Source: a virus
Lineage: Duplodnaviria; Heunggongvirae; Uroviricota; Caudoviricetes
Length of the DNA stretch: 64,000 nucleotides
Virus record (IMG/VR): IMGVR_UViG_3300008107_000010
Reading direction: 5' to 3' (one strand)
Shown here: piece after piece, positions 6,748-21,008 of the stretch
Layout: the number at the start of each line of letters is the position of its first letter
Numbering within the stretch: position 1 is the first letter of the stretch
Notes under the pieces: model-generated
What the model saw: only the letters and a program-made list of their open reading frames with translations
Told to the model about the DNA's origin: nothing
Databases searched by the model: none
Translations under genes and position numbers: made by a program

Positions 6748-8157
6748 TTAATCTTTTTTCTTAGCTAATAACTTTTTATAGTAATCTGCTTTTTCGTATA
6801 ACTGGTATGATGTTGATTTGTATTGTTTACGTTTTGAATATAAATCAGAAAGAATCATTTTTAACATTGAATCTTCTTTATTATAAACAACACCATTCTC
6901 GCAAACAATAACATTTTTATCTTTTCGACGCTCTTCAATTTTCGAAGCAGGTACCTTTTCAATAAAGGCATCTGGAGAAATATTAAACTGTCGCATGATT
7001 GATGGATATAGAGATGCAAAGTCAAATGCACTTACTCCAGCATAGAAACCAACTTTAGGTTCTTTAACAAAAGCTCCGGCATATTGTGTTTCTTTTTTAC
7101 CATCTTCACGTTGTTCTGAACCGATTCTAAATCCAGATTCTGCCATCTTACGAGCAATTAATGCTTCAGTTACAGCAACTGGAGAAGCAGCTTTATAAAT
7201 TGGCATTCTAGTAATATTAGCAAGAGTTAAAAGTACTTCCATTGATTTTAACTTTTTATCAATATAATATACTAGAACGGAGTCAACTACGTTATAATAA
7301 ACATACTTTTTAAAATCGTCTCGATATAAATCTTGTAAGCCTCCATTGTATTTAATTTTATTTAAATTTAATACTTGGCCAGAAACATAATCAAGTGAAT
7401 TTGATTCTTTAACTTTTACAGATTTATCATACTTATCATAAAGTTGCATGTAGTCAAGAATACCCATGTGTAATGGTCTTGAATCGGTTGGATCAACTGC
7501 TTTTGTAATTGCAGATTCAGCAATGTCAATTTGTAAATGCTTACAACGATTTACAATATATTGCCAGTCATAATTAATAAAATTCCAGCCGGTCATCATT
7601 GGAAACTTAGGCATAAATTTATACAAAAATGTATAAACCATGTCATACTCGGTTTTAAACTTAATATATTGAAAAGTCCAATCAGTGTCTAATGATTTAA
7701 AATATTCATTAGTATCTTTTTCAATTTGAGCGATTTGTTCTGAACTTAAATCTTCTAAACCTAATACGATTGCCTTTTTATTTGGAGTAATAATTGAAAA
7801 AGTAAGGATTCTTGATTTTGCTTCTTCAGCTCTTGGAAAACCGTCAACAATCTCAGTTTCAATGTCGACAAAATAAGTTTTTGGCATATTGTATGCGTAA
7901 ATTTCTTCTTTGTCTTTTTCAGAAAGACTGTCCATGAAATATACTAGCGAAAACTTATTAAACTGACGGGACGGCTGCAACTTAATTGCTCTGCCGTCCC
8001 AGTTTTTAAATTTTTGGCTTGCTTCGCGCTCTTTTTGGTCACAAACAAACCAGTTTTGATACTGATTAATTGGGTATCTCTTAAATGCAACTTCACCTTC
8101 TTTATTGTAAAAAGAGATCATTACCTCTTTATCTCTTTGCTCAATATCTAATAACAT
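6748..8157 (-). CDS. polB: Family B DNA polymerase, N-terminal subunit (3'-5' exonuclease plus motif A)
   Basis: ExoI FVDIETE, ExoII TGWNFINYDWQYI, ExoIII YYNVVDSVL, motif A FDFASLYPSIM; ends after the first fingers helix (LYSKRKQYK). Confidence 0.93.
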   Translation of the reverse strand: MLLDIEQRDKEVMISFYNKEGEVAFKRYPINQYQNWFVCDQKEREASQKFKNWDGRAIKLQPSRQFNKFSLVYFMDSLSEKDKEEIYAYNMPKTYFVDIETEIVDGFPRAEEAKSRILTFSIITPNKKAIVLGLEDLSSEQIAQIEKDTNEYFKSLDTDWTFQYIKFKTEYDMVYTFLYKFMPKFPMMTGWNFINYDWQYIVNRCKHLQIDIAESAITKAVDPTDSRPLHMGILDYMQLYDKYDKSVKVKESNSLDYVSGQVLNLNKIKYNGGLQDLYRDDFKKYVYYNVVDSVLVYYIDKKLKSMEVLLTLANITRMPIYKAASPVAVTEALIARKMAESGFRIGSEQREDGKKETQYAGAFVKEPKVGFYAGVSAFDFASLYPSIMRQFNISPDAFIEKVPASKIEERRKDKNVIVCENGVVYNKEDSMLKMILSDLYSKRKQYKSTSYQLYEKADYYKKLLAKKKD

Positions 8158-8624
8158 TAATATCCTCGTTTTTGGCGTTGCTTATTCTCTTCTGCTTTTG
8201 CAAAGTAGTAATTGTATGCTGTTTTTGCATCTAATCCAATAGATGCTGCATAATTTATAAAGAAGTGTAGAATATCTACCCATTCCATATAAAGCTCTTT
8301 GCGATCGTTTTCTGAAAGATCGGAAATTTTCAGGTTTTCATACTTTGTATGAGCTGTTTTCCAATACTTCCATACTGCATTACCATCTCCATCTTTAATG
8401 CCACCAAGTGCATCGGTCATTTCATGAATTTCATCAAGCACTGCGTGAGTGTTAACATGCCAGAAATTCATAATATCTCTGATTGTCATGTTATCAAAAT
8501 CAAAGCCATAAGTTTTTTCTTGCATTTCTTTTTGGTGGTTCATTATATCCGCCAAGTGTGTTGTAGATTTATCATAGAAGTCATTTACTTCTAAATCTTT
8601 ACATTCATTATCAATATTTGCCAT
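8157..8624 (-). CDS. All-alpha dNTP pyrophosphatase (dimeric dUTPase / T4 gp56 dCTPase-like)
   Basis: DEIHEMTDA, WKYWK, EWVDILHF, Y..K..EN..RQ.RGY signature of this family. Confidence 0.85.
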   Translation of the reverse strand: MANIDNECKDLEVNDFYDKSTTHLADIMNHQKEMQEKTYGFDFDNMTIRDIMNFWHVNTHAVLDEIHEMTDALGGIKDGDGNAVWKYWKTAHTKYENLKISDLSENDRKELYMEWVDILHFFINYAASIGLDAKTAYNYYFAKAEENKQRQKRGY

Positions 8625-8640
8625 ATACTATTTTATAGTT

Positions 8641-9069
8641 TTATTTATTATTGTTTACGAATTTAATATAATCGTGAATATAATTTCTGATTCTTTCAGA
8701 TCCGACAGGATTCATTGAATGTACATGAAATTCTGGAAATTTTAACTTATTGTCAATACAATACTCTACCAAAAATTTAGCACAGTCCAAACCTGTTTTT
8801 TCTTCAAATTCTTGCGGATAATCAGCGCCATCTCCACACATTGCTGGAGAATAATGTTCATCTGCTAAATCATGGTCAAAAGATACTAATTCAGGAACTC
8901 CATTAGTTACAATCCATTTTACGAATTGATTGTAATCTTTAACAATATCCCACTGTTTTTGGGTATAATCAGCAGCCGCAAGTCCAATACGAGCAGGCAT
9001 ATATGCAATACAATCGTATGGATGCCTAAAATCGTCTAAGAATAAATTTTTGATATTACTTGCTTTCAT
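8641..9069 (-). CDS. Cyclic-phosphate-processing receiver-like domain protein
   Basis: LFLDDFRHP, VSFDHDL, TGLDCAKFL, HSMNPVG motifs. Start moved to MKAS (9069), just after the promoter at 9075-9102. Confidence 0.7.
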   Translation of the reverse strand: MKASNIKNLFLDDFRHPYDCIAYMPARIGLAAADYTQKQWDIVKDYNQFVKWIVTNGVPELVSFDHDLADEHYSPAMCGDGADYPQEFEEKTGLDCAKFLVEYCIDNKLKFPEFHVHSMNPVGSERIRNYIHDYIKFVNNNK

Positions 9070-9074
9070 AATAG

Positions 9075-9102
9075 TTATATTAGAAAAGCGCGTTTTGTTC
9101 AA
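9075..9102 (-). promoter_or_regulatory. Putative phage promoter TTGAAC-N15-AATATAA
   Basis: Variant of the repeated motif, 5 nt before the ATG at 9069. Confidence 0.5.
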
Positions 9103-10129
9103 AATTATTATTAAAAAAGTACTCCATAACTGAATCATCGGTTCTGGCTACTTTTCGACGGCTAATTAAATGCGGATTGTTTCTTAGTCGGTAATAAACT
9201 CCATACTGACAAAGACCAACTTCGCAGCCATAAGTTTTAAGATCGTTTTGTTCTTCTTGGAAAATTTTCTTACCATCAACGTAAACATTATGCGTGGATT
9301 CATGTAATGGAATGTCTCCAATTAGATCTTTGTAGTTTTCTCGGAACCAAATAACTCTATCGCCATAAGGAATATCACATCCTTCGCCAAACATAAGATC
9401 TAATGTATATCTAGCACCAGGACCAGGAACACAGAATCTTTCGTCATGGTTAATTGGAATTCTTGGATTTACAGAATTAGACGTTGAACAGTGATATCCG
9501 TAGTATTGTCCCACACCTTCAAGCGAGGAGATAATATCATACATCTCACTTAAAGATTTTACTTGGGCCATTCTACCTGTGATTCCTCGAGGTATAAAAG
9601 ATGCTACCCATAATAGAATATTGATTTTATGAGCATCTCTTGGTTGATTTCTTAACTGAGCAACATAATTATTCGCAGCACCAAAAAGACTTGTACGTAA
9701 TTCCGTACTTCCATAGATTGGTAAACCTAAAGAAACGGCATCTTCTAAATTTTTACGGATTTTATCTTCATATTCTCTATCAACTAAAAGTCTTTCAAAA
9801 TCAACTAAAGCTGTTTTAGGATTCGGGTCTCTTGTTAATACTTGGTGAATTCCACGAGCTCCATAGAAGTGAGAAATAATTGTGTTGCAAATAATATTAT
9901 CCATTGAGATTGGAGCATACACGATGTTCTCCATGATATATCTCATACGATCGTCTAGAGTAATTTGAGGATGGAAATATTCAACTGTTTCTCCAAGAGC
10001 ATCGTCTCCACCACTGTCGTAACTTTCAAGAACACCCATATTATAGAGTGCTCTTTCATTTACTTTATTAAAGAATCGTCCAACGTCTTTTACAACGTCC
10101 ATATTGACTTGTTCAATTATATTACTCAT
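9080..10129 (-). CDS. aGPT-Pplase1 / amino-acid:DNA-transferase-like DNA-modifying enzyme (HhH-glycosylase-like fold)
   Basis: Helix-hairpin-helix-like LEGVGQYYGY, FCVPGPGARYTL, late EVGLCQYGVY motif matching this family's E..LCE..KY pattern; divergent. Confidence 0.65.
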   Translation of the reverse strand: MSNIIEQVNMDVVKDVGRFFNKVNERALYNMGVLESYDSGGDDALGETVEYFHPQITLDDRMRYIMENIVYAPISMDNIICNTIISHFYGARGIHQVLTRDPNPKTALVDFERLLVDREYEDKIRKNLEDAVSLGLPIYGSTELRTSLFGAANNYVAQLRNQPRDAHKINILLWVASFIPRGITGRMAQVKSLSEMYDIISSLEGVGQYYGYHCSTSNSVNPRIPINHDERFCVPGPGARYTLDLMFGEGCDIPYGDRVIWFRENYKDLIGDIPLHESTHNVYVDGKKIFQEEQNDLKTYGCEVGLCQYGVYYRLRNNPHLISRRKVARTDDSVMEYFFNNNFEQNALF

Positions 10130-10138
10130 AATATTATT

Positions 10139-10810
10139 TTATTTTTTAAACCAACAATCATATCCAGCAGTTTTATTAAAAACTGTAAATGCATGTACAT
10201 GATTATGGTTTGGATATAATTCAACCAATCTTTCAATTGCAGGTTCAGCAAATCGTTTTACTTTACCCATATGAAGTTCAACAAATAAAACTTCTGGATG
10301 ATAGGCTTCAACAGCTTGTAAAATTTCGTATTCAGCTCCTTCAATATCGATTTTAATAATGTCTGGTCTATATTTGTCTAATAACTCCTGAATATTAAAA
10401 TTGTTTACTTCATCATAATCTGAAAATTGACTACGTTTCATAATTGAAGTAGAACAATGCGCTTGTTTACTTTTACCTTTATAGATTCTAAGAGTTGGGC
10501 ATGTTTGTCCAGAAACTGCACCGTGTATGATGTTTGCCTTTGGCTCATTTCTAAAACTATTCATCATTTTTTCATAGTTTCTAGAATCGCATTCAACCGT
10601 ATAAACAGCTTGAGCTCCACCATCAATTGCAATCTTTGTAAACCCTCCAATATTACCACCTAAATCTAAACATACTTTACCAGTATAATCAATTTCTGGT
10701 TTTATGTAATGTATAATGCAATCGGTAATCATGTTATTATCGACGCGTTCAGTTGCATTTAGGTACCTAAGGTAATGTTTCTTTAATCCTTTTTGGAAAT
10801 CATTTAACAT
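10139..10810 (-). CDS. FkbM-family SAM-dependent methyltransferase
   Basis: VCLDLGGNIGGF, VYTVE, IIKIDIEGAEYEIL. Confidence 0.85.
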   Translation of the reverse strand: MLNDFQKGLKKHYLRYLNATERVDNNMITDCIIHYIKPEIDYTGKVCLDLGGNIGGFTKIAIDGGAQAVYTVECDSRNYEKMMNSFRNEPKANIIHGAVSGQTCPTLRIYKGKSKQAHCSTSIMKRSQFSDYDEVNNFNIQELLDKYRPDIIKIDIEGAEYEILQAVEAYHPEVLFVELHMGKVKRFAEPAIERLVELYPNHNHVHAFTVFNKTAGYDCWFKK

Positions 10811-10818
10811 ATTTTATA

Positions 10819-11187
10819 TTATTTTTCTACTAAATTTGATACAATATGGACTATGTCAAGATCTGGATGTTCTTGTTTAATCACAGCAATTTGAACTTCA
10901 TCATCATCGAAAAAACGCTCAACAATAATTCCCTGTTCTGCCAATTCTCTAATTGTTTTTGCTTTATGTTTTCCAGAGAATACTCTAGCTTCAACACTAT
11001 GATTTCCTCTTTCAGCCAATGTCATTTGATTAAAATATACATTGGTTGAGATTCCCATTTCAGATAGTTTTTCAAAAACATAGGGTGCTTCTTCTTGACA
11101 ACGACCAGTAATAATAACATCGTCACTATATCTAGGACAAACACCAATTGATACTACACCATCAAAATCGTATGCAAATATTTTCAT
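10819..11187 (-). CDS. Small HAD-superfamily phosphatase
   Basis: Motif I YDFDGV, motif II IITGR, conserved K (HKAKTI), motif IV FFDDD. Start at MKIF; the longer track start lies inside the terminator hairpin. Confidence 0.8.
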   Translation of the reverse strand: MKIFAYDFDGVVSIGVCPRYSDDVIITGRCQEEAPYVFEKLSEMGISTNVYFNQMTLAERGNHSVEARVFSGKHKAKTIRELAEQGIIVERFFDDDEVQIAVIKQEHPDLDIVHIVSNLVEK

Positions 11188-11200
11188 TTCTTTCTTTTTT

Positions 11201-11231
11201 AAAAAAAGATGGAGAGCAAAACTCTCCATCT
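11201..11231 (-). terminator. Intrinsic terminator after ino1
   Basis: Perfect 10-bp stem AGATGGAGAG-TTTTG-CTCTCCATCT followed by a T-run on the minus strand. Confidence 0.85.
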
Positions 11232-11242
11232 ATTTGGATTAA

Positions 11243-12421
11243 TTAAGCCTTAACTTGTTTCTCTGTAACTTTAGTAAGTTTACGATTTGCTAAAGCTTCG
11301 CATTCTTGAACAGCGTCAACAAACATCATTTGTTGAGGCGGTGTCTTTTGAGTAAATGCAGATGGTCCACGAAGAGCACCAACAATTCCCATTTCTCTTG
11401 CAACTCTAACATAACGTAGAGCGTCAATTACAACTCCTGCGGAGTTTGGACTATCTTGTACAGATAGTTGAGCATCAAAAATAACCGGTGCTCCACCAAA
11501 TCCTTCAAGTTCTAAACGGAAGTTTGCAACTTTATTATCTCCATAGTAAGAGATATATTCAGAAGGACCAGCATGTAAGAATGAACCTTCGGTTGAGATT
11601 CCACGAATATCATTCTGAGCACGAATTACATTCTCTTTAGAAATCTTTTTAGATTTCAAACGAGATTTATCTTCCATATTCAAGAAGTCAGTATTACCAC
11701 CAACATTACGTTGAATATGTGCTCTTACTACGTGGCCTCTTTCGAATGCAAGTTCTTGTAACATTTGAGACAAGATAGATGCACCAAATTGAGAACGCAT
11801 ATCATCACCGATCAATGGAATTCCTGCGTCGATAAAACGTTTCTCCCATGCTGGATCAGATGCAATAAATACTGGAATACAGTTAACAAAAGAGATTCCA
11901 GTTTCTAGACAAATTTCTGCCCAAAATTCTGTTGCTGCTTGAGAACCTACTGGTAAGTAGTTAATCAATACCTCAACTTCATGTTCTTTTAATTGAGAGA
12001 TGATTTTGTCTTTCCACTGTCTGTCTTTTTTATCAGTCCATTCAGTACGATTAGTTTCAGTTGAATTTCTCAACTCTTCAGAAACCAAGAAACGATTTGT
12101 TTCTGGATATGCATCCATTAACAATGCGTAACCATCAATAACTGGTGCTTCATATACTGGAGCAGTAGAATCGATAGTTGGAACAATGTCCCATGCAGAG
12201 TTTGGACGCTGCTTCAATGCAACACCTAATGGTTGATTTACTTTACGTTCATCAATATCAAAAGCACAAACGAATTCAATATCTTTTGCACCATATCCAC
12301 CAATGTCGCTACGCATCATACCGTCGATGTTTGCTTCATTTTCGGTGTAGAATTGTACTCCTTCTACTAGAGACTTGGCACAATTTCCTGTACCAATAAT
12401 TGCAACTTTAATTTTACTCAT
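11243..12421 (-). CDS. ino1: Myo-inositol-1-phosphate (inositol-3-phosphate) synthase, bacterial type
   Basis: IIGTGNCAKSLVEG, AFDID..KV, NYLPVGS, NCIPVFIA, GDDMRSQFGA, NVGGNTDFLNM, RLKSKKISK, DSPNSAGVVIDA; all core motifs are intact. Confidence 0.96.
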   Translation of the reverse strand: MSKIKVAIIGTGNCAKSLVEGVQFYTENEANIDGMMRSDIGGYGAKDIEFVCAFDIDERKVNQPLGVALKQRPNSAWDIVPTIDSTAPVYEAPVIDGYALLMDAYPETNRFLVSEELRNSTETNRTEWTDKKDRQWKDKIISQLKEHEVEVLINYLPVGSQAATEFWAEICLETGISFVNCIPVFIASDPAWEKRFIDAGIPLIGDDMRSQFGASILSQMLQELAFERGHVVRAHIQRNVGGNTDFLNMEDKSRLKSKKISKENVIRAQNDIRGISTEGSFLHAGPSEYISYYGDNKVANFRLELEGFGGAPVIFDAQLSVQDSPNSAGVVIDALRYVRVAREMGIVGALRGPSAFTQKTPPQQMMFVDAVQECEALANRKLTKVTEKQVKA

Positions 12422-12444
12422 GATTTTTAGTAATTTGTTTTAAG

Positions 12445-12472
12445 TTATACTTATAATTTATAAAAGGTTTCA
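12445..12472 (-). promoter_or_regulatory. Putative phage promoter TGAAAC-N15-AGTATAA
   Basis: Copy of the repeated motif directly upstream of ino1. Confidence 0.55.
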
Positions 12473-13519
12473 AAATAGGCTAGTAACTTTTGGTTTAAGT
12501 TCTGGATTCTTTTTTCCGGTTTCAAAGTCATATTGATAATATTTCCTTGAAAGGTGCACCGATCCGGGTTTTTCCATATACATATCCGCATAGTCTTTAG
12601 GGCTAAGTTGATACCATTCGATTGGCCATTCGATTAATTCGTATCCGGCCTCACTTAGATATATACTCAGCTTTTGATTAAAAATTCGACAAATTTCTAA
12701 TCTTTTTTCTAAAGATCCATAAAAAGGTGTTCCTTTGTAGAATCCAGTTTTTGGAATTCTGCGTTCTTCATGATCGATTGGTAATAATTTGACTACACTA
12801 ATCTTTGGAATGTTTAAAGATTTTAAATGTTCAACATAATTCTTAACCAAATCTTCAGTTGCTTTAACCGGATCTGGTTGTCGGCATAAATGGTGTCGAA
12901 TATCAATATTACCAAAATACGTAATTAGGTGTTTAGTTCCTTCTGGAATATAGGTTGTCATACCTTCTTTAATAACTCCAAATAATGTTTTACCATCATT
13001 TCGACTGATATTTGAGCCTGGTACATAAACTGAAACCGAATGGCTATCACCTAACACAAATATATCAGACTTTAGAGTTGTATCTATTGTCTGAGTTTCT
13101 ACTGATTTTGTACTTAAAGTTTCAACATCAAGATTTTTCCAAATCTCAGTACATGCATTCATTCTGCTTTTAGCAAATGCTCCAATGTCTGGCATTTGTC
13201 TATTTAGACAATACACAGATCCTTTAAAATCTATTAGCCTTTGCATTCTAATTGCAGTTTCATCATTAGCACCGCCAAATAAATTGTAACTTCCTTGAAA
13301 TTCCATTGGTAAAGCTACTAACCAAACGTCATAGTTATGAACATTTGCATCTTTGGTTAAAACGGTAGCATCAATACCTAGACTCTTTAATTGTGACATT
13401 AATAAATATGTCCATGCTGATTTATGAGATTCTGGTTTTGAACTATAAGTAGTAACCACATCATCTATTGCAACTTTTTTACCAAGTAAAGAATCTTTTA
13501 TATCGTAGATGCTTATCAT
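12470..13519 (-). CDS. Two-domain protein: beta-glucosyltransferase-like N domain plus SGNH-like C domain
   Basis: N-half KVAI..YLL..LKSLG..V.NYD..YNLFGG..FKGSVYCL resembles the T4 BGT acceptor domain as recalled; C-half has LGDSHS, FGNIDIRHH and SVH; ends TSLF. Confidence 0.5.
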   Translation of the reverse strand: MISIYDIKDSLLGKKVAIDDVVTTYSSKPESHKSAWTYLLMSQLKSLGIDATVLTKDANVHNYDVWLVALPMEFQGSYNLFGGANDETAIRMQRLIDFKGSVYCLNRQMPDIGAFAKSRMNACTEIWKNLDVETLSTKSVETQTIDTTLKSDIFVLGDSHSVSVYVPGSNISRNDGKTLFGVIKEGMTTYIPEGTKHLITYFGNIDIRHHLCRQPDPVKATEDLVKNYVEHLKSLNIPKISVVKLLPIDHEERRIPKTGFYKGTPFYGSLEKRLEICRIFNQKLSIYLSEAGYELIEWPIEWYQLSPKDYADMYMEKPGSVHLSRKYYQYDFETGKKNPELKPKVTSLF

Positions 13520-13860
13520 TTTAAAAGCTTTTTAATAAGAGATGGTAAATATGTAAATGAAATAATAATGCCAAAACTAAACATTATTACGGCTAACTCT
13601 TTAGTCTGAGCATTAAATTGTTCATGCGACATCCATAGAGTGTTTGCTGTTAACCAACAAAGTATTGATATATTTTCCATCTTTTCGAAAAATCTATCAC
13701 TCCATTTAATTAATAGAACCGAGATTATGATTGTTGGAATTGCAAGTGTTAAACTTAAAACACCAAATCCCATCATCCACGCTAAATCTTTAAGAATCCA
13801 CATTGGAAAATGGATCACTTCTAAAACGTCTTTACTTCTTTGTTCCTTCGTTCTTTTCAT
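13516..13860 (-). CDS. Small integral membrane protein
   Basis: About four hydrophobic segments; H..MWILKDLAW and ENISILCWLTANTLWM resemble a bacterial membrane family; ATGA overlap with the downstream gene. Confidence 0.7.
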   Translation of the reverse strand: MKRTKEQRSKDVLEVIHFPMWILKDLAWMMGFGVLSLTLAIPTIIISVLLIKWSDRFFEKMENISILCWLTANTLWMSHEQFNAQTKELAVIMFSFGIIISFTYLPSLIKKLLK

Positions 13861-14113
13861 TAATATAATTTTCTAAACCTTGAATATACGCAACTGCATC
13901 AAGCAAATTATCTCGTTTGTGATTATAACTTTCACGCGAGAATTTAAGCGCTACTAGCGCCATAAACATTTCACGACCCGTAACATTAAGTCCGGTCATA
14001 CCATTAAAAATCATTGCTGCTCGATCCATGCCTTCTGAAAATGGACCATATTGGCGATCTGCTTCTTCTGAACGATTGTTGACAATCTTGTCTGCTTCTT
14101 CTAAAATACTCAT
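13832..14113 (-). CDS. DUF6378-like small helical protein (possible nucleotide pyrophosphohydrolase)
   Basis: ILEEA..IV..R...YG, MVALKFSR, HKRDNLLDAVAY. Confidence 0.7.
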   Translation of the reverse strand: MSILEEADKIVNNRSEEADRQYGPFSEGMDRAAMIFNGMTGLNVTGREMFMALVALKFSRESYNHKRDNLLDAVAYIQGLENYINEKNEGTKK

Positions 14114-17706: not shown

Positions 17707-19152
17707 TTATTTCATTTTGAAACCTAGCTTACCATTACCTGGGTTGGTTGATGATACGTTCGGTGCTTCGAATGAAAGTTTTGCATTAGCATCGCTAAAT
17801 CCTTTTAAATAAAAATGAATCTGGTCTCTTTTAAGATCCACATCCATATATAATTGTTTAACATCTAATTTAGCAACGATGGTTCTTAGTGTGTTAATAT
17901 AAGTATCTCCAGCACCAAGTTTACCATTTAAAACATCAATAAGTTCTAAGCTTAATGAGTAACTAAATAAGCCAATATACTTTTTACCTTTATCTAGTTT
18001 GTCCCATTGAACTTTGTCAAATTTGTCAACTCCTCTACCAGAGGATTTAACCAATGGTTGAACGTAAGTTGTAAAGAATTCTTCTCTACCAAGCTCAGTC
18101 ATTTTAGCTTGTATAAAACTTTCTAGAGATTTTTCATCTAATGGAACATTTCCAATCAATCCCTTTAACACAGAAATTGATGGCGTATTCATAAATTCAG
18201 CGCCTTTAATATAACCATCGATTACTGAATTGTTTTCTATAATTTTAAATAAATCATACAACTGAACTTCTGAAGTTTCAGTAAAATTTTCAGCTTTTAG
18301 ATTTTTAATAATATTTGATAGGGTTGGGGCTGCTCCAGATTTATATTTTGAAGATATACCATATCCATCAATATAAAAATCTACTAGTGGATTATTTCCA
18401 GAAGGAAATGATATTCCATGTTGAGTTGTTACCATATTTAATAGTAATGCAGCTCCTAGAACTTCACCAAAATCTTTACCGATTGTGTTTAGATCTGTTA
18501 CACCAAGAGCATCAATTGCTTCTCTAACATTTTCATCATATCCGATAGTTTCAGAAAACGCTGAAATTGATAATGGATCTTTAAAATATGTTGAAGGTTT
18601 ATGCATTGATATTAAATCATAAAGTTCGATTAAAAAACTTTGCATAAAGAGATTAGAGCTATACTTACTGTTAATTGCGCTTTTAACACTGTTTGATAAA
18701 ACTGTAGAATTCATATCAGTGTCTTGTGGTAAATTAAGAGAAGTTGGAGTAAGTTCTTTAGATTTAATAGATCCTCTTGGTGGATTATTATCAACAAATT
18801 TAATAACATCTCCGATTGAAACTTTTAAATCTTTTACATCTTCACCGAATGTTACGATGAAAGTTGTAAATTTACCTGAATTAGAACCATTTGAATATTC
18901 TCCAGGTCCAGCAGTTACGATATCGAATTTTGATGCTCCTAATTTATTAAGAGCATCACTGATTGATTTTAGTGCGCTTTTAGAATCTCCACCTAAATCA
19001 AATCTTAAATCTTTTCCACCATTCTTTGTATTAATTCTACCGGGTCCTAATAATTTCTGCATTGCCGGAAGTACTGTTCCTTCAATCGATCTTGCTGCTT
19101 CATTTAATGCAAGTTGAAATCTTGCTCTAATATCTCCGTAAGTTTGTCCCAT
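17707..19152 (-). CDS. Hypothetical protein with possible PD-(D/E)xK nuclease-like domain
   Basis: DFGEVLG...NPLVDFYIDGYGISSKYK fits an E...D...(S)xK restriction-endonuclease-like pattern. Confidence 0.45.
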   Translation of the reverse strand: MGQTYGDIRARFQLALNEAARSIEGTVLPAMQKLLGPGRINTKNGGKDLRFDLGGDSKSALKSISDALNKLGASKFDIVTAGPGEYSNGSNSGKFTTFIVTFGEDVKDLKVSIGDVIKFVDNNPPRGSIKSKELTPTSLNLPQDTDMNSTVLSNSVKSAINSKYSSNLFMQSFLIELYDLISMHKPSTYFKDPLSISAFSETIGYDENVREAIDALGVTDLNTIGKDFGEVLGAALLLNMVTTQHGISFPSGNNPLVDFYIDGYGISSKYKSGAAPTLSNIIKNLKAENFTETSEVQLYDLFKIIENNSVIDGYIKGAEFMNTPSISVLKGLIGNVPLDEKSLESFIQAKMTELGREEFFTTYVQPLVKSSGRGVDKFDKVQWDKLDKGKKYIGLFSYSLSLELIDVLNGKLGAGDTYINTLRTIVAKLDVKQLYMDVDLKRDQIHFYLKGFSDANAKLSFEAPNVSSTNPGNGKLGFKMK

Positions 19153-21008
19153 TATATCTTATTTATAAATTGTTCAAATGTTAAAATATCTTCTTCAACT
19201 TGAATAGATTCCATAGCTGCAAAAGAAGCATCTAATTTCTCTTTTAAATCATTAAACATTCCGTGTAGAGAACGTGGAGTCATTTTATTAAACTCTTTTA
19301 CATTACCATCGCTAAGTGCTTGTCTAACTTTGGTAGCTGAAATATCATCGTCTCCTCTTTGGATTTCATATAAGCCAAATTCAGGAAGTACTCCAAGTTC
19401 TTGACGATATTTATCATTGTTAACCATATATCCATAAGCTTTCATACGGTCAGTTCCAGTGCCCCATAAAACAGGCTCATAATTAGGTCTAAGTTCATTA
19501 AACATAACATCGATTGCAGCAGAAGGAACAACAATAACTTCTTTTAAGAATCTGTATTCGCTCTGTACATTATTAAACATTTGAATTTGAGTTTCTACAT
19601 CATAAGGTCTTTTAATAGCATCCTCTTTCTTAGCAGTTTTTGCCTTAACTAAGAATACAATAACTGGATATCCATTTTGCTTATTAAGTGTTTCTAATAC
19701 TTTAACGTGACCTAGTGTAAATGGTTGAAATCTACCAACAAAAATATTTACTTTTTCGCGACCTTGTTCTGGATAATCGATCTTTAATGCTTCAGTAATT
19801 TTTTGGCTATTTGCAACTTTATGATGCATTATAAAATTATGAAAGTCGAATACTGCATTTTCTTCAGTTGGTTCAACATAGATCTTTTGTTCAATTTTAT
19901 CCACGATTTCATTAATTTGATTTAAAACCAACCCTGAAATAATAGTTGATTCCTTGGTTCTTTTCTTTCTAAAACTACCTAAAACTATTTTATACAATTC
20001 AGCAAGAACTGGATTTGAAATATAATCTAGCGTAGTTTCATTTTTAATATATGTTGTATTCAACTTAAATGACTCAATTGTTGCAAAATTAGCAGAATCA
20101 AAATTAGCACCAACATATTTAAATGCATTCTTAGAAAGATATTGATTGTAAATTGCTGAAGTTAACTCAATATATCGTAAATCCGGGTTTGTTTCGGTTA
20201 ATTCAATTTCGTCTAAATTAAAACTATTCATATATTCTAATAAATCAACGATGGTGATCTGGTACATATGAGAAGACTCTCTATCGTCATTTGATTCATT
20301 AAGTCTATCGAATGATTCTAATTTATAGGATTTTACTTTAGTTCCATCAATAAAAGAAACTATTAAACCATCAATTTCTTTATCTAAATTTTCATTTAAT
20401 GTACTTTTAGTTAAAGATTGATTAAAAATATGATACGCTTCTCTTGTAAACGTATCTTTATTATATCGCTTATTAAATTCGCCTTCATTCATTGAAAGTA
20501 ATTTAATTAAACGATCTTTTTGTTCTGTGTGTAATATACCTTCAAAAATAACGGGTGGCTTTTGTACACCAAACATTCCTGCCCATTTATTAAGAATAGC
20601 AGTATCATTAATAACTTTTCTAGGTTTTCTATTCTCACCTAAAACTTGAATGTGTGTTAATATTAAATAGTTTGTGGGTAAAGTATCATATTGATATGGA
20701 GAAGCTTCGACATCTGGAAGATATTCAAATCCAAATTTCCAATCAATTGGCATATTTTGCTTAACTTCAGGTGAAATTGATTGAAAATATTTAATGGCAG
20801 TTTCATATAAAGAAACCATGGTTCTATCGATTGGAGAAAGCTCTTCACTTGATCCGTTTTTATAGAACTCAAATCCATTTAAACTTCTTCTAACATATAA
20901 AGAAGGGGCTGCGATCTTTTCAGAGACAACAATTTTATCATTCAACATTGAGTTGAATTCATTAATATTTACCGATTGGTATAGATCTCTTAATTTTTGT
21001 AATGCCAT
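19152..21008 (-). CDS. Fusion of a degenerate RNA-ligase-like domain and a HIGH-type nucleotidyltransferase
   Basis: C-half IFVGRFQPFTLGH...ISATKVR (cytidylyltransferase-like); N-half SEKIAA, FGFEY, PPVIFEG, IDGLIV resembles ligase motifs with KxDG altered. Confidence 0.65.
   Translation of the reverse strand: MALQKLRDLYQSVNINEFNSMLNDKIVVSEKIAAPSLYVRRSLNGFEFYKNGSSEELSPIDRTMVSLYETAIKYFQSISPEVKQNMPIDWKFGFEYLPDVEASPYQYDTLPTNYLILTHIQVLGENRKPRKVINDTAILNKWAGMFGVQKPPVIFEGILHTEQKDRLIKLLSMNEGEFNKRYNKDTFTREAYHIFNQSLTKSTLNENLDKEIDGLIVSFIDGTKVKSYKLESFDRLNESNDDRESSHMYQITIVDLLEYMNSFNLDEIELTETNPDLRYIELTSAIYNQYLSKNAFKYVGANFDSANFATIESFKLNTTYIKNETTLDYISNPVLAELYKIVLGSFRKKRTKESTIISGLVLNQINEIVDKIEQKIYVEPTEENAVFDFHNFIMHHKVANSQKITEALKIDYPEQGREKVNIFVGRFQPFTLGHVKVLETLNKQNGYPVIVFLVKAKTAKKEDAIKRPYDVETQIQMFNNVQSEYRFLKEVIVVPSAAIDVMFNELRPNYEPVLWGTGTDRMKAYGYMVNNDKYRQELGVLPEFGLYEIQRGDDDISATKVRQALSDGNVKEFNKMTPRSLHGMFNDLKEKLDASFAAMESIQVEEDILTFEQFINKI

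Follow-up and report, generated by a model that had tools for sequence, protein, structure and literature searches.

Why does a phage keep an intact synthase for inositol phosphate in the midst of genes related to enzymes of DNA base modification? The question is raised by 64,000 nucleotides of IMG/VR virus record IMGVR_UViG_3300008107_000010 (Caudoviricetes), hereafter the window, which is T4-like phage DNA with a GC content of ~32% and nearly all of its genes on the minus strand. Nine closely packed genes, running from a DUF6378 gene to a dCTPase gene (14113-8157, minus strand), include an Ino1-type synthase (MIPS), a small HAD-type phosphatase, and two proteins designated prot3 and prot7. 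The original prediction held that this cluster converts glucose-6-phosphate to inositol, possibly O-methylated, and attaches it to a hydroxymethylated pyrimidine in phage DNA. All of the genes that it named are present between 8157 and 14113 on the minus strand; its gene list is correct as far as it goes, omitting a cREC_REC protein and a 114-aa membrane protein. The cluster has a somewhat better than even chance of being a post-replicative 5-hydroxymethylcytosine (5hmC) hypermodification cassette of a large freshwater T4-like phage with inositol as the donor. A route from glucose-6-phosphate through inositol phosphate and inositol to DNA is supported in that it fits every comparative test run, and an undescribed inositol-bearing DNA base is likely in this phage, with a chemistry that we infer from the gene content.

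The synthase MIPS (392 aa, 11243-12421, minus strand) covers the full PF01658 profile (Inos-1-P_synth, positions 1-107) with 79.2 bits against a cut-off of 27 (3e-22). Its best solved relative is Ino1 from M. tuberculosis (1gr0, 9e-80), followed by Ari2 (6k96, 7e-48), and the predicted inositol-1-phosphate synthase is thereby borne out at the level of the family. Six phage lineages show little or no variation in the motifs GxGxC, NYxPVGS, SKxxSKENV, DNK, and DSxNSAG. G002, a 139-kb IMG/VR contig that is collinear with the window at ~75-85% nucleotide identity, provides the closest comparison: the two MIPS copies share 98.2% amino acid and 93% nucleotide identity, with codon differences comprising 71 synonymous versus 7 non-synonymous, a pattern that points to strong purifying selection. 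Amino acid identities of MIPS, dCTPase (97.4%), and prot7 (96.6%) exceed those of ribonucleotide reductase (94-96%) and the family-B polymerase (PolB, 89%), with cREC (76%) and FkbM (67%) being the least conserved; by this measure, no genes of the region are under stronger constraint than MIPS, prot7, and dCTPase. Judging from its family and motifs, MIPS is an Ino1-type cyclitol-phosphate synthase, for which inositol phosphate is the presumed product.

Downstream of MIPS lies a minimal, capless HAD-type phosphatase of 122 aa from its likely start (10819-11187, open reading frame (ORF) to 11229, minus strand). Twelve lineages share the motifs D.DGV, ITGR, SG.hK, and feDD; membership in the HAD superfamily is assigned on these motifs because no library profile (Pfam) matches, and no PDB entry was matched by sequence search. 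The predicted HAD phosphatase thus stands on its four motifs and is not backed by a library family. The gene also lies immediately 3′ of MIPS in the cultured Stenotrophomonas phage Mendera, Caulobacter phage Cr30, and Ralstonia phage RP13 and is, on gene order, the constant partner of MIPS. Such a pairing of synthase and phosphatase should therefore deliver free myo-inositol, or a closely related cyclitol, starting from the glucose-6-phosphate of the host. An assignment of the HAD protein as an NT5C-type deoxynucleotidase was considered and rejected, as the HAD copies scanned gave no NT5C match. Three of the downstream ORFs of 165-184 aa are P-loop kinases, and the Pfam tally, made without ORF assignment, contains two NT5C matches.

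What connects this pair to DNA is the company it keeps. At least 424 IMG/VR contigs encode MIPS of the window's type, and loci were surveyed by tblastn with our own queries, together with a Pfam tally made without ORF assignment. Among the 80 closest loci, prot3 lies directly upstream of MIPS in every one, HAD follows it in 76 (in the remaining four the contig ends), and prot7 is found downstream in 68, with most others ending too early; BGT homologues (3/80) and an adjacent hydroxymethylase (11/80) are found less often. Beyond this set, the entire cassette is present in a 186-kb contig with identities of 53-86%, only MIPS-HAD-prot7 is retained in a phage contig of 280 kb, and several contigs have the order dCH-MIPS-HAD-prot7-prot3. 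Loci with divergent MIPS number 44 and fall into three settings, with AADT (an amino acid:DNA transferase) in 21 (1.1-4.4 kb upstream), prot7 in 13, and FolE/QueC/QueE in 6; a base-modification gene thus lies within ~4 kb in ~40/44, and HAD is present in most. Across seven loci of the AADT class, 54 neighbouring ORFs yielded matches to AAA_33 (6), ADDT (5), Tet_JBP (5), Ploopntkinase3 (5), and AAA_18 (5). Three of the seven have Ploopntkinase3 directly after HAD, giving the order AADT-MIPS-HAD-kinase, with Tet/JBP next in line in one of them (L146). The three settings intermingle on a maximum-likelihood tree of MIPS, where well-supported branches force at least 5, 3, and 3 label changes, which indicates that the association was re-formed repeatedly rather than inherited once. 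The original prediction asked whether ino1 co-occurs with these transferases in related phages, and it does so in the close loci and in most of the divergent ones.

The AADT-MIPS-HAD-Ploopntkinase3 order was also noted as recurring in IMG/VR contigs L113, L114, L127, L132, L146, and L150. Some of the contigs with this order encode a family-A polymerase and hence belong to a phage type unlike that of the window.

The same loci bear on an alternative in which MIPS-HAD is an auxiliary metabolic module, serving an osmolyte, inositol lipids, or the diversion of glucose-6-phosphate, that is lodged in a plastic early-gene region. MIPS is preceded by a promoter-like AT-rich leader with TATAAAT (12422-12469) and followed, just 3′ of its stop, by a terminator-like hairpin with a T-run (11207-11231, minus strand; 11-pair stem, 5 G-C). 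Contigs from three metatranscriptome libraries cover MIPS almost end to end, with DNA carry-over possible, and one RNA-library contig of 1161 nt (11256-12416) has almost exactly the length of the gene. Leader, hairpin, and gene-length RNA contig together are suggestive of MIPS being its own transcription unit. The promoter said by the original prediction to head the cluster could not be confirmed, with sigma-70-like sites in no excess (30 versus 32 expected from shuffles). Further consistent with an auxiliary module, MIPS-HAD moves as a self-contained pair, and RP13 and a few contigs have no DNA-modification gene detected near MIPS. Yet AADT, aGPT-Pplase1, and 7-deazaguanine genes are rare in phages and still lie within ~4 kb of most divergent MIPS loci; post-replicative thymidine hypermodification is estimated to occur in ~1 phage in 2000 (PMC8989533). 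The linkage moreover persists while gene order differs between lineages, and the MIPS tree needs repeated changes of setting. A purely auxiliary role is accordingly considered decidedly unlikely, and a donor for DNA modification is the preferred reading of the MIPS-HAD product.

The identity of the target base is indicated by relatives of the window. The thymidylate-synthase homologue of G002 has T4 dCMP hydroxymethylase as its best match (1b49, 2e-16), carries Asp at the position of ThyA N177 (cytosine specificity), and keeps D169. Residues diagnostic of a hydroxymethylase versus a 5-hydroxy-dCMP synthase have been described (PMC13326640), and an RB69-like 5-hydroxy-dCMP synthase is ruled out because Asp169 is kept. 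A dCMP-specific hydroxymethylase is also found in the syntenic contig L025 and in the distant L023 and L024, and other relatives have it at a distance of 2-6 kb from the cluster; in the phage of the window, the corresponding part of the genome falls outside the 64,000 nucleotides. Between HAD and FkbM, G002 encodes a full-length homologue of T4 beta-glucosyltransferase (BGT), with PF09198 above cut-off and a match to 1bgt at 7e-15 over residues 1-323.

The window itself contributes a dCTP pyrophosphatase of T4 gp56 type (MazG/dUTPase_2-like; 8157-8624, minus strand), as had been proposed. By tblastn, it matches annotated dCTPases of Tequatrovirus and Aeromonas phages at 1e-16 to 7e-20 with ~40% identity, and phrog_173 at 2e-12, with Pfam dUTPase_2 being below cut-off; its nucleotide identity to the G002 copy is 93%. 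The combination of a gp42-class hydroxymethylase, a gp56-type dCTPase, and a BGT homologue argues for 5hmC, not 5-hydroxymethyldeoxyuridine (5hmdU), as the target base. A hydroxymethylated pyrimidine thus remains the predicted target on the strength of the hydroxymethylase in relatives, while the 5hmU-type version of that idea does not.

The original prediction had cautioned that neither a hydroxymethylase nor a 5-hydroxymethyl kinase is recognizable in the window, and none was found among the window genes scanned. Its suggestion to look for both elsewhere in the genome, followed up on relatives, was answered by the gp42-class enzyme of G002 and by no kinase: Ploopntkinase3/5-HMUDK (PF18751) is absent from five contigs of the lineage, up to 236 kb in length, and from the window genes scanned. 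The only AAA_33 match above cut-off in these five contigs is a 140-aa ORF far from the cluster.

Prot7 (9080-10129, minus strand) is the proposed transferase, being the nearest AADT relative in the cluster by profile and structure model. It matches PF18723 (aGPT-Pplase clade 1, now named HMUDK_hel) with 47.8 bits against a cut-off of 25 and has no match to PF18724, the clade 2 family of the characterized AADTs. The predicted structure (predicted local distance difference test (pLDDT) score of 90.6) has a helix-hairpin-helix (HhH) glycosylase-like fold, and its closest solved structure is PaMx11 gp46, a 5-PmdU glycinyltransferase (8z2n; VIA Z 11.0, rmsd 3.8 over 227 residues), for which the Foldseek E-value is only 0.12. 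The sequence search of the PDB gave nothing useful, and no AlphaFold-SwissProt entry was found. E303 and C307 are invariant in 35 homologues, and the segment EVGLCQY aligns, in a statistically weak profile alignment, to ESIYCQY, the ExxxCQY motif of clade 2 AADTs. The Cys and Glu of this motif are essential for the Michael-addition mechanism of AADTs (PMC8989533). The G002 copy is 90% identical in nucleotides. The predicted resemblance to aGPT-Pplase1/AADT is thus upheld by family, fold, and motif.

Homologues of prot7 extend beyond the phage cassette. A copy in the 280-kb contig (L026, 8001-9584) has a 180-aa C-terminal extension consisting of a lysine-rich linker and a small globular domain, and several other metagenomic homologues of 519-560 aa carry similar extensions. 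A bacterial homologue with 52% identity is encoded in a Crocinitomix algicola genome contig (L027, 8001-9032) beside a helix-turn-helix protein and a phage integrase; this region also has helicase-nuclease and Schlafen-like genes and lacks MIPS.

Prot3 (349 aa, 12470-13519, minus strand) joins two domains. It has no family match, including to PF09198, and the PDB sequence search gave nothing useful; its architecture emerges from a structure model (pLDDT 89) and profile comparison. Residues ~150-340 adopt an SGNH fold, matching many SGNH esterases at VIA Z 11.6-9 with Foldseek in agreement. G157-D158-S159-H160, G203-N204, and H322, which correspond to SGNH blocks I and III and the His of block V, do not vary among 39 homologues, and no Asp of block V was recognized in prot3.

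The N-terminal domain of prot3 matches a BGT family profile, built from T4, CC31, AB2I3, and metagenomic copies, with 93.8% probability in hhalign (E 1.7e-7), with residues 22-113 aligned to T4 BGT 12-107 and NLFGG placed on the NFFGG loop. The match to a single BGT sequence is weak (10%), significance being reached only against the family profile. With SGNH in place of the UDP-glucose-binding Rossmann half, prot3 is not a member of the BGT family; the earlier description as beta-glucosyltransferase-like therefore fits the N-terminal domain, and the C-terminal half makes a glycosyltransferase untenable. The role proposed for prot3 from sequence and model is recognition of 5hmC in DNA, with activation or tailoring of this base.

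Several arrangements tie prot3 to prot7 and to hydroxymethylation. In the Aeromonas phages 44RR2.8t and 31, the homologues of prot3 and prot7 are fused into one 795-aa protein (phrog_17781), and by analogy with this fusion the two proteins may work together; structure prediction of their complex scored 0.00, which gives no verdict and is not evidence either way. Prot3 adjoins dCMP hydroxymethylase genes in distant contigs. A 118-kb metagenome contig (L024, 3784-7924) has a prot3 homologue followed by a 376-aa protein and a 295-aa protein that looks dependent on pyridoxal phosphate (PLP) by eye; the cassette continues with a dUTPase and a cytosine-type hydroxymethylase and is without MIPS.

Whether prot3 and prot7 act on DNA at all deserves consideration. 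The fold family of prot7 includes the nucleotide-acting, queuine-salvage DUF2419, and cREC domains, one of which is encoded in the cluster, have been linked to RNA repair and NAD systems (PMC7824862), so that free nucleotides (editing of the hm-dCMP pool) or RNA (a tRNA base) could be imagined as substrates. DUF2419 and the HhH DNA glycosylases rank below 8z2n for the fold of prot7, however, and its nearest fold is thus a DNA-acting transferase, then DNA glycosylases. The N-terminal domain of prot3 matches that of a DNA-modifying enzyme, T4 BGT, relatives have a DNA BGT homologue inside the same cassette, and cREC is a variable component. A nucleotide or RNA target is thus highly improbable, and 5hmC in DNA is retained as the substrate.

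A pathway can be proposed on this basis. The gp56-type dCTPase would remove dCTP such that only hm-dCTP is incorporated and, with the gp42-class enzyme, cytosine would be replaced by 5hmC. MIPS and HAD would make a cyclitol phosphate from host glucose-6-phosphate and then dephosphorylate it. On the polymer, Cys307 of prot7 would add to C6 of 5hmC, and Glu303 would help to expel the C5 substituent, leaving an exocyclic methylene. Capture of the latter by an inositol hydroxyl would yield an ether-linked 5-(inosityl-oxymethyl)cytosine, just as a serine hydroxyl performs the capture with ViI gp247 (PMC8989533). Prot3 would take the place held by the 5-hmdU DNA kinase in thymidine clusters: its BGT-like domain may bind the flipped 5hmC, and its SGNH serine may convert the hydroxymethyl group to an ester that leaves more readily or, alternatively, tailor the adduct.

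Two features of the scheme allow for variation. C5-methyltransferases can substitute thiols for the hydroxyl of 5hmC with no phosphorylation step, which means that a kinase is not chemically obligatory. Capless HADs often act on large substrates; inositol phosphate could thus be placed onto DNA first and dephosphorylated there. FkbM may O-methylate the cyclitol or the adduct, and BGT, where present in relatives, may glucosylate remaining 5hmC or the adduct. The modified DNA would be shielded from host nucleases.

The nature of the added group is where a further alternative enters. Base 5hmC may indeed be modified, with an amino acid, amine, or acyl group being added instead, and the MIPS-HAD product being used indirectly (as a donor precursor, cofactor, or phosphate acceptor) or being a non-myo cyclitol. 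The groups transferred by characterized relatives of prot7 are amino acids or putrescine (PMC8989533), homologues of prot3 and prot7 occur in phages without MIPS, and one prot3 neighbourhood has instead an enzyme that looks PLP-type by eye. As for another cyclitol, MIPS scores 286.9 bits against TIGR03450, the bacterial/mycothiol Ino1 equivalog, which is under the 638-bit cut-off, and it is related to Ari2, a five-membered cyclitol synthase. Free amino acids, on the other hand, need no donor genes, yet MIPS-HAD is found repeatedly beside the transferase, in several AADT loci between transferase and kinase. The constraint on MIPS is stronger than that on its neighbours, and the MIPS-less Aeromonas phages have a Na+/solute symporter by the prot3-prot7 fusion, in keeping with polyol or sugar import. 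A non-inositol group is therefore regarded as unlikely, with an ether-linked inositol being favoured.

The Aeromonas locus is instructive in this respect. In 44RR2.8t (L004, 6438-10418), the fusion is ORF233c and its upstream neighbour ORF234c is the symporter (PF00474, 6e-53); this phage encodes a hydroxymethylase of the gp42 class but neither BGT nor MIPS. By analogy, the symporter would fit a phage that imports a polyol or sugar where the phage of the window synthesizes one.

Several points weigh against an inositol adduct on 5hmC and are considered together. With MIPS under the equivalog cut-off, its product could be another cyclitol. The possible independent transcription of MIPS and the travel of MIPS-HAD as a pair would equally be expected of an auxiliary metabolic module. 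The 80 close loci represent one lineage and are not independent. Prot3 and prot7 homologues occur without MIPS in the Aeromonas phages, L023, L024, and Crocinitomix, and so have no requirement for inositol. Clades 1 and 2 of aGPT-Pplase are not significantly related overall in hhalign (E 0.049). The hydroxymethylase is known from relatives and not from the window, and the lack of a 5-HMUDK-type kinase in the lineage makes the activation step a conjecture. In the literature, no paper was found in which a DNA base is connected with inositol or another cyclitol, in line with the original prediction, which knew of no described inositol-modified base, and genome announcements only annotate the synthase. 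We know of no enzyme that couples a cyclitol to DNA.

Cultured phages widen the picture. Carriers of the module include Cr30, the Mendera/Moby/IME-SM1 group, and RP13, along with the MIPS-less Aeromonas phages 44RR and 31. Cr30 (L002, 1706-9257) encodes an SNF2 protein, a small protein annotated as "cysteine dioxygenase", a dATP/dGTP diphosphohydrolase (PF18909), AADT, MIPS (gp121), and HAD (gp118). Its AADT (PF18724, 1e-52) lies ~1 kb upstream of MIPS with one gene, gp122, in between, which has a weak match to TET-associated glycosyltransferases; the only thymidylate synthase of Cr30 is a canonical ThyA. Gene content makes it probable that Cr30 MIPS belongs to a thymine hypermodification cluster. 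In Mendera (L001, 6098-11624), MIPS-HAD sits between FolE and QueC/QueE of a 7-deazaguanine cluster, as it does in L111, L121, L125, L137, L151, and L154, which hints at a decorated deazaguanine.

A broader generalization can be entertained, with a chance slightly short of even, of an undescribed class of cyclitol DNA bases. A mobile MIPS-HAD pair would supply myo-inositol, sometimes O-methylated, that is ether-linked to 5hmC (in the phage of the window, by way of a clade 1 aGPT-Pplase and a new BGT-N/SGNH enzyme in place of the base kinase), to 5hmU (with AADT, a kinase, and Tet/JBP, e.g., in Cr30), and possibly to 7-deazaguanines in Mendera-like phages.

The remaining genes of the cluster are less constant. 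FkbM (10139-10810, minus strand) is an S-adenosylmethionine methyltransferase with PF05050 (1.6e-14) and TIGR01444 (4.7e-16) both above cut-off, as predicted; it is present in 57/80 close loci, and in two a BGT homologue takes its place. cREC_REC (8641-9069, ORF to 9138, minus strand; PF20274 at 5.5e-21) was detected in 7/80 close loci at 1e-5. Proteins of this type are predicted to be cyclic-phosphate-processing phosphoesterases with a receiver fold (PMC7824862). On their low identities and patchy occurrence, both FkbM and cREC are variable accessory genes.

At the head of the cluster, the 93-aa DUF6378 protein (13832-14113, minus strand), foreseen as DUF6378-like, matches PF19905 at 9e-10, above cut-off; it lies upstream of prot3 in 75/80 close loci and in the distant locus L023. 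The 114-aa predicted membrane protein (13516-13860, minus strand) has no family match, is wedged between DUF6378 and prot3, and overlaps both. Present in only 1/80 related loci (a near-identical contig) and absent from G002, it is probably an insertion particular to the phage of the window and outside the pathway.

As claimed, the cluster lies directly upstream of the N-terminal half of PolB (6748-8157). This polymerase is split, with its C-terminal half at 1661-2857 and nrdB, nrdA, and a 250-aa gene in between, a layout shared by G002. Elsewhere, the window encodes UvsX/RecA, UvsW, gp32, and structural genes. A 618-aa protein (19152-21008, minus strand), which is also conserved in G002 and is encoded 5 kb upstream of the cluster, has a C-terminal cytidylyltransferase-like (HIGH-motif) domain (PF01467, 1.4e-7); it could be a nicotinamide mononucleotide adenylyltransferase for NAD salvage or a donor-activating enzyme. 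No cluster protein has a match in PADLOC. In G002, positions 1-41700 (L011-L013) harbour three GT2 glycosyltransferases, DUF2827, a collagen-repeat protein, ClpB/ClpP, DnaJ, and Hsp20 as well as PhoH, UvdE, RNase HII, a LOG-like protein, dCMP deaminase, and a 2OG-Fe(II) oxygenase.

With contigs of 139-236 kb rated 46-77% complete by CheckV, the genome size is probably close to 300 kb. A DNA-level search of the phage collection with the window found no relative. Near-identical DNA is found in freshwater metagenomes of at least nine studies, with parts in metatranscriptomes of several, and the phage of the window is common in freshwater metagenomes.

How does the proposed system compare with those already described? 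Thymidine hypermodification in phages ViI, M6, PaMx11, SP10, and PhiW-14 employs a dUMP hydroxymethylase, a 5-hmdU DNA kinase, and AADT (aGPT-Pplase2) (PMC5889632, PMC8989533). The cassette of the window resembles these systems in forming a hydroxymethylpyrimidine first and substituting it on the polymer, in having nucleotide-pool editors in the cluster, and in its HhH-glycosylase-like transferase with a Cys/Glu pair, as prot7 keeps ExxxCQY. It differs in that its base would be 5hmC, prot7 belongs to clade 1 (PF18723) with a predicted activity, a BGT-N/SGNH enzyme stands where the P-loop 5-HMUDK does, and the donor genes MIPS and HAD are present, whereas amino acid donors need none.

In T4, hmC is glucosylated with the aid of the dCMP hydroxymethylase gp42, the dCTPase gp56, and alpha- and beta-glucosyltransferases. 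With T4, the cluster shares a gp56-type dCTPase; close relatives also have a hydroxymethylase of the gp42 class and a true homologue of BGT, and the N-terminal domain of prot3 is homologous to BGT-N. In contrast to T4, SGNH replaces the UDP-glucose half in prot3, the window has no glycosyltransferase, and the proposed donor is not a nucleotide sugar.

RB69 and DLP3 contain arabinosylated 5-hydroxycytosine (PMC13326640). The Straboviridae-type organization is common to both cases, in which a thymidylate-synthase homologue, dCTPase, transferases, and a donor branch with a small HAD are clustered. Unlike RB69 and DLP3, the homologue in relatives of the window keeps Asp169 and is thus of the hydroxymethylase class, the window lacks a UDP-sugar pathway and GT-B enzymes, and the proposed donor is a cyclitol. 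With Ino1 (Rv0046c, 1gr0) and Ari2 (6k96), MIPS shares fold and family as well as the Lys/Asp-rich motifs found in all phage copies; in contrast to bacterial Ino1, the phage enzymes form their own clades, have a 120-aa HAD partner, are embedded in DNA-modification clusters, and lie under the equivalog cut-off.

To our knowledge, every known phage pyrimidine hypermodification uses sugars from nucleotide sugars, amino acids, or amines. An ether-linked cyclitol, if true, would add a new chemical class to the natural DNA bases, and the clade 1 aGPT-Pplase together with the BGT-N/SGNH enzyme may reveal a kinase-free activation of hydroxymethylpyrimidines. Bases of this kind are relevant to how phages evade restriction, CRISPR, and glycosylase defences and could provide tools for 5hmC labelling. 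Set against the published systems, the cassette would represent a post-replicative hydroxymethylpyrimidine hypermodification that is new in both its donor class and its enzyme architecture.

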